Positions 29,233 to 34,638 of a DNA stretch of 64,000 nt are shown in pieces. Under the pieces are notes generated by a model. The model made no database searches. It had not been told where the DNA came from and saw nothing but the letters and a program-made list of their open reading frames with translations. The DNA is from Escherichia phage JLBYU40: sequence record NC_105514.1. One strand, given 5' to 3'. The position numbers and the translations under genes are program-made. The number at the start of each line of letters is the position of its first letter. Position 1 is the first letter of the stretch.

Positions 29233-29427
29233 TTAATAAAGTTTAGTCACTTCATAAACTATACTACGAGATTCTTTATTTCGTTCTATTAAATTAGTAT
29301 ATGCTTTTTCAGCTTCATTTTTAGTATTAAAGTCTATAACGTGGGAGGTATTCGCTCTATTTGATTGACTATACCAGATAACTACTAACAGTTTAAACAT
29401 AATAGTCCTTAAATTGGTGCTGGGCAC
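29233..29427 (-). CDS. hypothetical protein (start uncertain)
   Basis: 64 aa ORF; listed start overlaps a tRNA 3' end, so the internal Met near 29400 is more likely. Confidence 0.3.
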   Translation of the reverse strand: MPSTNLRTIMFKLLVVIWYSQSNRANTSHVIDFNTKNEAEKAYTNLIERNKESRSIVYEVTKLY

Positions 29428-29501
29428 AGGATTCGAACCTGCAGCGGGATTACTCCTCCTGATTACAAATCAGGTGCATTCAACCATTCTGCCAACCCAG
29501 C
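29415..29501 (-). tRNA. type II tRNA, anticodon unresolved (canonical register TGT)
   Basis: perfect acceptor, GGTTCGAATCC T-arm, CCA, ~15-nt variable arm; anticodon stem CCTGA/TCAGG with loop TTTGTAA. Confidence 0.45.
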
Positions 29502-33508: not shown

Positions 33509-33610
33509 GCTTGTTTCCTCAGTTATTAATGAAAATGGTATCTGTGGCTGAATTCGATGTCAGCAATGATAGCTGGTTGGCTACCGGTTTACTTAACTCT
33601 ACACAGAATT

Positions 33611-33688
33611 TGGCGGTTCCTGCTGGATTCGAACCAGCAACCCTCAACTTAACAAGATGCCGCTCTAACCAATTAGAGCTAAGGAACC
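33611..33688 (-). tRNA. tRNA-Asn (GTT)
   Basis: perfect acceptor and T-arm, CCA; anticodon loop TTGTTAA but stem has two mismatches. Confidence 0.45.
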
Positions 33689-34183
33689 ATATAAGTCAGA
33701 ACTAGAGTTAATACGTTCTAGATATTTACTAAGATCTCTAGAATTTATACTAAACCACTCATGTTCTTTTAAATCTTTGAAATACTGGTGAATTAGTTTT
33801 TCACCTTTTCGTTTGTCAAACCAAAAAGACCAATGCTCTAACTTATAATCCCTATAAGGGGAATAAGTCTGATATTGAGCTAATCTCTCTTTTGGATTTT
33901 GACTCATACCTATTTTATACTGATTTTTCCATGCAGGATTACTAATACAGTATACAAAACCTTCAGAAATAGGAAGTTTATTTTCCTGCTTAAACTTTAT
34001 AAAGGAAAGTGCAGCAAGTTTTCTCGAATACATAGTATTTGTATTCTTTTTGGTATTACCATTGGTTCCTGAAAGATTTATATATTCTTCCATAAATCTT
34101 TGGATTAGTTCTGCGGTTATATAGAAGGGCTCATTAGTAACAATACCTTTCTTTACCAAACTATCAAAAACTCTTGTATGCAC
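33665..34183 (-). CDS. T5orf172-domain (GIY-YIG-like) protein
   Basis: 172 aa; GFVYCISNP...YKIGMSQNPKERLAQY resembles the T5orf172 motif; 3' end overlaps tRNA-Asn by ~24 nt. Confidence 0.55.
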   Translation of the reverse strand: MHTRVFDSLVKKGIVTNEPFYITAELIQRFMEEYINLSGTNGNTKKNTNTMYSRKLAALSFIKFKQENKLPISEGFVYCISNPAWKNQYKIGMSQNPKERLAQYQTYSPYRDYKLEHWSFWFDKRKGEKLIHQYFKDLKEHEWFSINSRDLSKYLERINSSSDLYGSLALIG

Positions 34184-34204
34184 TACTTCTTTCCTTTAGT
34201 AATT

Positions 34205-34280
34205 TGGACGACCGCATGAGATTTGAACTCACATAAAAAGGATTTGCAATCCTTCGCCTAAGCCATTCAGCCAACGGTCG
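34205..34280 (-). tRNA. tRNA-Cys (GCA)
   Basis: acceptor with terminal G-U, anticodon stem AAGGA/TCCTT, loop TTGCAAA, CCA. Confidence 0.55.
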
Positions 34281-34357
34281 GTTTATCTTGTTCTGTCATG
34301 TTGCTTCTCCAGTTCAATTTATGTAATTATTATACAGAACTTTTGGAAACTAAGCAA

Positions 34358-34627
34358 CTACATTTTTAAGAATTTGATGCCTTTCTTTTTCTTCTTATAT
34401 TTCCACGTTAATGGATTCTGCCGATTGTGAACGCTTGAGATCTTCGTCTCGTCAAAGTTCTTCAATATCATGTAATCACAAGATAATTGTTCTAATGGAA
34501 TGTGATCACCGTCAAAAGCATATACATAAGGCTGTTGACTAACACGATAATGATAGACTTTGTTAATTCTACGTTTTAGCGACTTATCAGCGCAGTAAAT
34601 AAAGAAGTTTTCAGGATGCATCAGCAT
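34358..34627 (-). CDS. hypothetical basic protein
   Basis: 89 aa ORF. Confidence 0.4.
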   Translation of the reverse strand: MLMHPENFFIYCADKSLKRRINKVYHYRVSQQPYVYAFDGDHIPLEQLSCDYMILKNFDETKISSVHNRQNPLTWKYKKKKKGIKFLKM

Positions 34628-34638
34628 CTCCTTCGATT

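Follow-up and report, generated by a model that had tools for sequence, protein, structure and literature searches.

The tRNA region of Escherichia phage JLBYU40 (sequence record NC_105514.1), of which we analysed a stretch of 64,000 nucleotides (nt), hereafter the window, holds on its minus strand a gene of 172 codons (33665..34183) that is the orthologue of T5.069 of phage T5 and that ends 24 nt inside the gene for tRNA-Asn. On the evidence of the open reading frame (ORF) list, Pfam and PHROG matches, sequence identity and the ratio of nonsynonymous to synonymous substitution rates (dN/dS), it encodes a putative free-standing endonuclease of the T5orf172 type. We consider it likely that this is a homing endonuclease gene of the GIY-YIG clan, transcribed with the tRNA operon, whose product cuts the empty junction or the alternative “B” allele of the downstream tRNA and whose level is limited by the position of its stop codon. 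The gene behaves as a mobile cassette, as seen in a clean insertion polymorphism, in paralogues at other tRNA junctions and in recombination between paralogues. As a gene of the T5 reference genome belonging to a catalogued family, it is already known.

The T5.069 Orthologue and Its Stop Codon Inside tRNA-Asn

The 2.3 kb around the ORF match 525 phage records, nearly all of them T5-like Demerecviridae, with up to 97% identity, and the window is that of a T5-like phage. Its ORF product and T5.069 (YP_006897.1; ORF065 or AAX12002.1 in AY587007) are both 172 amino acids long and identical at 169 of these positions, the three changes all falling within the N-terminal domain, and DNA identity between the window and T5 is 99.2% over the 516-nt insert region. 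T5.069 likewise has tRNA-Cys on one side and tRNA-Asn on the other, and it overlaps the latter by the same 24 nt. The original prediction, made from the letters alone, had read T5-like ancestry from the length of 172 amino acids together with a sequence motif; the orthologue in T5 bears out the ancestry, but the length is not diagnostic by itself because paralogues measure 157–181 amino acids.

Orthologues carry various public labels, among them “putative homing endonuclease” (DaisyDussoix, bas31_0099), “T5orf172 domain-containing protein” (8sent1748), “hypothetical protein” and “putative GIY-YIG nuclease family protein,” while several GenBank records leave the gene unannotated, and T5.069 has no assigned function in RefSeq or in the 2025 re-annotation of T5. 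When all six frames of the T5 genome were scanned with a hidden Markov model of the family, T5.069 gave the sole strong score and T5.154 a weak one; the latter, which is the other T5 protein with the domain, has 277 amino acids, combines a CapR zinc finger with T5orf172 according to Pfam and adjoins the terminase gene. The InterPro name of the domain is “Bacteriophage T5 Orf172 DNA-binding” (PMC4619093). Since T5.069 is the only strong match in T5 and has 172 residues against the 277 of T5.154, it is very probably, judging from these sequences, the ORF after which T5orf172 is named; we found no paper stating which T5 ORF is meant, in a search that did not extend to the naming paper of Iyer et al. 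(2002).

The ORF begins with GTG, and an ATG at the same codon in orthologues supports this start position. The upstream neighbour, tRNA-Cys(GCA) (34205..34280, minus strand; called by ARAGORN and Rfam), places its 3′ CCA 21 nt ahead of the start, and the spacer in between (34184..34204, minus strand), AATTACTAAAGGAAAGAAGTA, includes an AAGGA Shine-Dalgarno sequence at 34192-34196, 8–12 nt upstream of the start. The first four nucleotides of the spacer (AATT) are part of an ancestral 7-nt inter-tRNA spacer, and the remainder holds the ribosome-binding site. At the other end lies tRNA-Asn(GTT), in the form of a 78-nt “A” allele (33611..33688, minus strand), called by ARAGORN and by Rfam with 55.4 bits; the Rfam tRNA model RF00005 places it at 33614..33688, with the same 5′ end and with the CCA outside the model. 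As the two callers agree on the 5′ end at 33688, the overlap, first estimated at about 24 nt, is exactly 24 nt (33665..33688, minus strand). It comprises the last seven sense codons (GSLALIG) and the TAG stop, which coincide with tRNA nucleotides 1–24: codon 165 (GGT) is formed by nucleotides 1–3 and the stop by nucleotides 22–24, so that the GSLALIG tail is encoded by the acceptor and D arms of the tRNA. This tail is constant in all five aligned alleles, which are 78–98% identical overall, and the C-terminal tails of the paralogues are unrelated to it.

Domain Composition and Predicted Fold

The protein is a member of the T5orf172/MUG113 family, within the GIY-YIG clan. Over residues 75–158 (33710..33961, minus strand) it matches Pfam MUG113 (PF13455) with 59.4 bits (E = 5.4e-16; gathering cut-off 22.3) and T5orf172 (PF10544) with 47.6 bits (E = 2.6e-12; cut-off 20), the latter along profile positions 1–100 of 101, and 25 of 27 database homologues carry precomputed matches to both. 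The canonical GIY-YIG profile PF01541 remains below its cut-off (13.6 vs. 22.6 bits, E = 0.087) and aligns only with residues 75–108, the GIY...YIG...R half. The GIY-YIG-like core proposed at the outset, GFVYCISNP...YKIGMSQNPKERLAQY, does lie in the 172-residue ORF, at residues 75–104, and the T5orf172 assignment proposed with it stands, with MUG113 in addition, but GIY-YIG holds at the level of the clan only. Published work places T5orf172 among the homing endonucleases as a subfamily of GIY-YIG with many representatives in T5-like phages, and has demonstrated for one member a nuclease activity that requires the conserved Glu (PMC10448857). Beyond Pfam, the ORF matches PHROG 5032 (function not annotated) at 1e-63, an NCBIfam search with its protein gave no match, and PADLOC returned PDC-S57, a candidate defence family, as a weak match (6.5e-8).

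The motifs of the domain are GFVY (75–78), YKIG (89–92), R100, YQTYSPxRDY (104–113), E128 and E142-W143, of which G75-F-V-Y78, Y89-K-I-G92, R100 and E142 follow one another in the order of the GIY-YIG motifs. In an alignment of 32 homologues, reaching down to 24% identity, G75, Y78, I80, N82, A84, K90, G92, R100, L101, Q105-P109, R111, E128, E142 and W143 are invariant, and position 89, that of the second Tyr, is variable (Y, F, V or L). Judged by motif order, Y78, R100 and E142 would be the equivalents of the catalytic set.

An AlphaFold model computed from a 27-sequence alignment (predicted local distance difference test, pLDDT, 88; predicted template modelling score 0.83) has two domains. 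The N-terminal one (residues 1–72; 33968..34183, minus strand) consists of three predicted helices (2–11, 24–38 and 48–67, pLDDT >90), and is followed by a beta-beta-alpha-beta-alpha core whose predicted three-stranded sheet and flanking helices resemble solved GIY-YIG domains; confidence is low solely at the tRNA-encoded C-terminal end (about 53). The best solved-structure matches of the model are GIY-YIG nucleases (SLX1), with modest scores, and Foldseek against the PDB gave no match with E < 0.001. Sequence-profile searches of the PDB found nothing, and hhalign of the family alignment against an approximate sequence of I-TevI residues 1–97 gave a probability of 0.3. Among predicted viral structures, full-length matches with E of 1e-14 to 1e-7 come from T5-like phages and T4-like Aeromonas phages. 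Having no Cys, the N-terminal domain is not the CapR-type zinc finger of most T5orf172 homing endonucleases, and because it matches no known DNA-binding family we can only presume that it serves as the DNA-recognition module.

The domain was originally read as a DNA-binding one, and the protein could conceivably be a non-catalytic DNA-binding or regulatory protein in which the nuclease-like motifs are structural only. InterPro retains the corresponding name, which also appears in BFVD descriptions, and a relative of the T5orf172 homing endonucleases, the PLE CapR, has been domesticated as a regulator. We nevertheless hold such a role to be improbable, given that Y78, R100 and E142 stay invariant down to 24% identity, that Glu-dependent cleavage has been shown for another T5orf172 protein, that conservation within the gene is highest in the nuclease domain (dN 0.06–0.085) and that the patchy distribution described below is at odds with a core regulator.

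Allelic States of the tRNA-Cys/tRNA-Asn Junction

The orthologue is found in about 78–80 of the roughly 525 related phage records with the region, and the Cys|Asn junction takes at least four states among T5-like phages. In the first state tRNA-Cys is separated from a “B” allele of tRNA-Asn by AATTTTA (GreteKellenberger), in the second by 152 nt (Th1 and about 186 records); in the third, that of the window and T5, 21 nt and the ORF precede the “A” allele, and in the fourth the “A” allele follows directly upon AATTTAT (smaug, S124). As Salmonella phage smaug has the same two tRNAs with a 7-nt spacer, the gene can be delimited against this empty site (TCCA-AATT^TAT-GGTTCC) as a clean insert of 509 nt, AATT[...]TAT (33692..34200, minus strand), which consists of the ribosome-binding site and the ORF without its own stop codon. 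In comparison with Kenya-K18, both flanks are 97–100% identical and identity drops to 55–89% solely between the two tRNAs, with a sharp change at the tRNAs themselves. This is a presence/absence polymorphism with precise boundaries, as looked for in a free-standing homing endonuclease gene. The original prediction had taken the gene for a selfish element of the kind that often sits in tRNA clusters and had pointed to its presence or absence at this junction in related phages; the pattern found (about 78 of about 525 records with the gene, and empty Cys-7nt-Asn junctions in existence) and the profile match both support that interpretation.

The two tRNA-Asn(GTT) alleles, the 78-nt “A” of the window and T5 and the 83-nt “B” (locus L006, 2830-2912), are only 64% identical. 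The “B” allele has an unusually long variable region, occurs in most T5-like phages that do not have the ORF and is the commoner of the two, with 285 records (at least 90% identity) against 132 for “A” (at least 95% identity). A member of the endonuclease family almost always precedes the “A” allele, either the orthologue itself or a paralogue with 41% identity, the latter in Klebsiella phages, and none lies upstream of the “B” allele in any locus examined. The linkage of gene and “A” allele is strong, though not absolute, and would fit co-conversion of a linked allele that is presumably immune to cleavage.

We also considered the gene and tRNA-Asn “A” as an obligate two-gene mobile cassette. 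This was rejected, as smaug and S124 have the “A” allele after tRNA-Cys without the gene, and it is countered as well by the tRNA-Asn genes downstream of distant homologues, which are unrelated alleles (54–72% identity). The conserved element that fills the Cys|Asn spacer in the second junction state (locus L004, 2443-2594, of Salmonella phage Th1; 152 nt) is called as no tRNA by ARAGORN and has no noteworthy ORF, and is perhaps a small RNA, perhaps a remnant.

Paralogues in Other tRNA Spacers

Paralogues with 41–58% identity occupy other inter-tRNA spacers of T5-like phages. At the loci retrieved by an alignment-based scan of viral contigs, they share the layout CCA-AATT-A/G-rich-ATG with a gap of 15–21 nt, and each tRNA-cluster paralogue starts 15–21 nt past the preceding tRNA (or after a small ORF) and ends within the next tRNA, the overlaps being 15 and 10 nt at Tyr|Glu, 10 nt at x|Lys, 10 nt at Tyr|Asn and 43 nt at Leu|Ser. 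The insert of GreteKellenberger lies inside an intact AATT...AATTTAA spacer, and the loci of P0002 and P0003 are alleles of the orthologue itself, with the 24-nt overlap kept. Among six more-diverged homologues from metagenomes and run assemblies, three overlap the downstream tRNA (by 5, 13 and 22 nt) and three do not. We accordingly rejected an ending inside a tRNA as a family-wide rule, since 3 of the 8 loci fetched in this way, those of P0002 and P0003 included, have a gene that stops short of the tRNA or of another ORF.

The two-domain family also has a member in the T4-like Stenotrophomonas phage IME13 (Straboviridae; locus L054, 594-1346); located between tRNA-Asn and tRNA-Tyr, it extends 15 nt into tRNA-Tyr, so the habit of sitting in tRNA spacers crosses phage families. 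Within T5, the ORFs directly upstream of a tRNA overlap it in three of three cases when they are nuclease genes and in one of eight when they are not (Fisher p = 0.024). The HNH genes hegD and hegC of T5 (NC_005859; locus L049, 29344-29978 and 30942-31606) overlap tRNA-Gln2, which is marked as a pseudogene, by 23 nt and tRNA-Ser2 by 14 nt, respectively; in the tRNA region of T5, then, nuclease genes of two unrelated families end inside the next tRNA.

The confinement of nearly all close family members to tRNA clusters, in two unrelated phage families, and the position of tRNA-Asn immediately downstream at 5 of about 13 junction types might suggest a role directed at RNA and tied to the neighbours, for example as a nuclease or chaperone acting on tRNA precursors. 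We regard this as very unlikely: searches of Pfam and NCBIfam gave no match to an RNA-binding or RNase family, phages with the same tRNAs exist without the gene, and the GIY-YIG clan members in the papers cited and among the matches are DNA nucleases. The association with tRNAs is explained equally well by conserved tRNA genes serving as homing targets or recombination arms, as for SegB of phage T4.

Recombination Between Paralogues

Salmonella phage PK7 (PV611632.1; locus L052, 677-1297) contains, between tRNA-Tyr and tRNA-Asn-A, an intact chimeric ORF of 173 amino acids. Over the first ~180 nt it is 97–98% identical to the Tyr|Glu gene of the Th1 type (locus L004, 1501-2046), and from about nt 180 onward, which covers the nuclease domain, it is 92–100% identical to the gene of the window, with the crossover in or beside a shared FIKFKQENKLPI linker. 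The two parental genes coexist in some genomes, for example NBEco002 (locus L012), and the event deleted the tRNA-Glu, -Trp, -Phe and -Cys genes that lay between them, which means that recombination between paralogous endonuclease genes shrinks the tRNA cluster. The chimera also confirms that the architecture is modular and that the two domains recombine independently, which agrees with the shuffling of domains reported among T5orf172 homing endonucleases (PMC10448857).

Purifying Selection and Dispensability

Diverged alleles of the same locus, all encoding 172 amino acids, were taken from Kenya-K18, P0002 and P0003, and T5 was also aligned, its differences from the window being at too few sites for an informative dN/dS. 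Relative to the window, dN/dS (Nei-Gojobori) of the three diverged alleles is 0.04–0.07, at a dS of 1.65–2.8 that is at or near saturation, and among the diverged orthologues it is 0.02–0.10. The N-terminal domain (dN 0.19–0.30) evolves three to four times faster than the nuclease domain (dN 0.06–0.085).

The ORF is a real, functional gene under purifying selection. The AT-rich genome, the GTG start, the lack of an own stop codon and the missing annotation in several GenBank records might still raise the suspicion of a chance or decaying ORF with an overlap that is an artefact of annotation. This we can practically dismiss in view of the Pfam and PHROG matches, with profile scores above threshold, the confident fold, dN/dS values of 0.02–0.10 that lie far below 1 and the same ORF annotated in T5, to which we add the ATG of orthologues at the same start and the two independent tRNA callers that agree on the 5′ end.

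Strong selection raises another question, namely whether the gene is an accessory nuclease kept for the benefit of the phage, which would cut competing phages, satellites or host DNA (compare Odn of ICP1), or would remodel or amplify the tRNA cluster as an anti-defence measure. The best argument for this is the very strong and long-lasting purifying selection itself, with dS saturated; further, T5orf172 nucleases have been co-opted in the conflict between ICP1 and PLE, SegB amplifies tRNA loci to escape Septu, as seen in T6 (PMC13096335), the PK7 chimera shows rearrangement of a tRNA cluster mediated by such genes, and there is the weak PDC-S57 match. Against it, about 85% of related records do not have the gene, and a mobile gene would be expected to leave just such a clean insert in a 7-nt spacer, and paralogues scattered over other junctions. 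In addition, T5.069 was scored “Not Fit” in a CRISPRi-ART screen of T5, meaning dispensable for laboratory growth (PMC11879866, supplement), so that its knock-down has no fitness effect in T5. On balance we think such a benefit unlikely to be the main explanation, though it overlaps with homing rather than excluding it.

Proposed Homing and Control of Expression

Homing of a free-standing endonuclease gene, which we favour, would proceed as follows. From its place within the 7-nt tRNA-Cys/tRNA-Asn spacer, the gene would be co-transcribed with the early tRNA operon; promoter-like sites are no commoner around it than in shuffled sequence (5 vs. 5.5 ± 2.5), which is why we propose transcription within the operon and not from an own promoter. 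The helical N-terminal domain may recognise the empty Cys|Asn junction of co-infecting related phages or a site close to it, and the T5orf172 domain, with Tyr78, Arg100 and Glu142 as a GIY-YIG-like catalytic set, would cut this empty junction or the B-type allele. Through recombinational repair the recipient genome could then acquire a copy of the cassette, usually along with the tRNA-Asn “A” allele linked to it. We infer cleavage, target site and homing from the comparisons above, and the literature we searched contains no report of site-specific cleavage of the gene-less allele by T5.069.

The position of the stop codon may in turn limit the amount of nuclease. Since the cassette does not bring its own stop codon, translation ends at the TAG inside tRNA-Asn, beyond the RNase P site, and cleavage by RNase P at the 5′ end of the tRNA would leave a non-stop mRNA, which may keep the nuclease level low. 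Control by tRNA processing, with expression lowered by processing of the transcript, has been proposed for segB of T4 and for the F-Tfl endonuclease genes in the tRNA cluster of T5 (PMC2330249); segB would be cut between its last codon and its stop, whereas seven sense codons of the window gene lie inside the tRNA.

Comparison with Known Endonuclease Genes

A close parallel is SegB of T4 (PMC2330249; PMC13096335). Like T5.069, it is encoded by a small free-standing gene of the GIY-YIG clan in a phage tRNA cluster, its ORF end abuts or overlaps the downstream tRNA such that 5′ processing of the tRNA would remove the stop codon, and it is patchily distributed among relatives and belongs to a family associated with tRNA genes. 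In contrast, cleavage and marker exclusion are proven for SegB, a canonical enzyme of the PF01541 type, and the window protein belongs to the T5orf172/MUG113 branch, has an unrelated helical N-terminal domain and is known here from sequence and model.

With the T5orf172 homing endonucleases of ICP1 and other phages (Gp53, Gp121, Gp130, Gp174 and Odn; PMC10448857; PMC8263062) the window protein shares the catalytic domain family, and its subfamily shares with them the combination of a DNA-binding module (presumed in the case of the window) with a T5orf172 domain, the expansion of paralogues within a lineage and recombinational domain swaps. However, 87% of the surveyed T5orf172 proteins have CapR/DUF723/DUF4397 zinc fingers, and most are encoded near terminase, nrd or capsid genes (PMC10448857), while the subfamily of the window (PHROG 5032) has a Cys-free three-helix N-terminus and a location in tRNA spacers. 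T5 itself has the zinc-finger type in T5.154 (locus L051, 18974-19807), which is annotated as “endonuclease,” lies by the large terminase gene and joins a DUF4379/CapR zinc finger to T5orf172. T5.141 (locus L051, 8978-9730) carries CapR and DUF4379 zinc fingers with no detectable nuclease domain, and may thus be a degenerate or domesticated relative. hegC (T5.064) and hegD (T5.061) have the tRNA region and the overlap habit in common with T5.069 but an unrelated HNH catalytic fold. The F-Tfl (HNH) endonucleases of the T5 tRNA cluster are reportedly active (Akulenko 2004).

Other Features of the tRNA Region

Upstream of the gene, the interval from tRNA-Phe to tRNA-Cys (34281-34638) measures 358 nt in the window and 474 nt in T5; the small T5 ORF T5.070 (129 nt) and the annotated promoter P14b surrounding it seem to be absent from the window or rearranged. 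Since the length of this interval varies between 94 and 748 nt in the relatives examined, it is another hotspot of insertion and deletion. Directly 3′ of tRNA-Asn, 33519-33610 of the window corresponds to what is annotated in T5 as “RNA3, putative tRNA-like RNA”; it is nearly identical in phages with and without the gene and receives no call from ARAGORN or Rfam. Further along, the tRNA-Thr(TGT) that ARAGORN calls at 29415-29501 has 87 nt against the 75 nt annotated in T5, which could reflect a mis-called boundary or an insertion.

Implications for the tRNA Repertoires of T5-Like Phages

A survey from 2023 already covered the T5orf172 homing endonucleases of T5-like phages, a discussion of endonuclease genes that overlap tRNAs dates from 2008, and the gene itself adds little that is new. 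Its worth lies in the context it gives to the mosaic tRNA region of T5-like phages, with four allelic states of the Cys|Asn junction, two non-homologous tRNA-Asn alleles and a deletion through recombination between paralogues. Modestly useful leads, in our view, are the junction states, the A and B alleles, the chimera of PK7 and the way the family keeps to tRNA spacers in two phage families. The gene is also a clean candidate for the first biochemistry of a T5orf172 enzyme without zinc fingers, and likewise for the old idea that tRNA processing throttles the endonuclease genes of tRNA operons.

A wider reading, to which we give some credence but which we think will more probably fail than hold, is that PHROG 5032 represents an endonuclease lineage specialised on tRNA junctions in Demerecviridae and T4-like Straboviridae. 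Most of its members would have no stop codon of their own, and their synthesis would compete with RNase P maturation of the tRNA as a dosage limiter, while breaks and recombination between paralogues would drive the replacement of tRNA-Asn A and B alleles, deletion as in PK7 and possibly amplification. If this were true, such genes would be reshaping phage tRNA repertoires, and these repertoires counter tRNA-cleaving immune systems. Given that phage tRNAs are recognised as counter-defence genes, a reshuffling of these tRNAs by endonuclease genes may have effects on host range.

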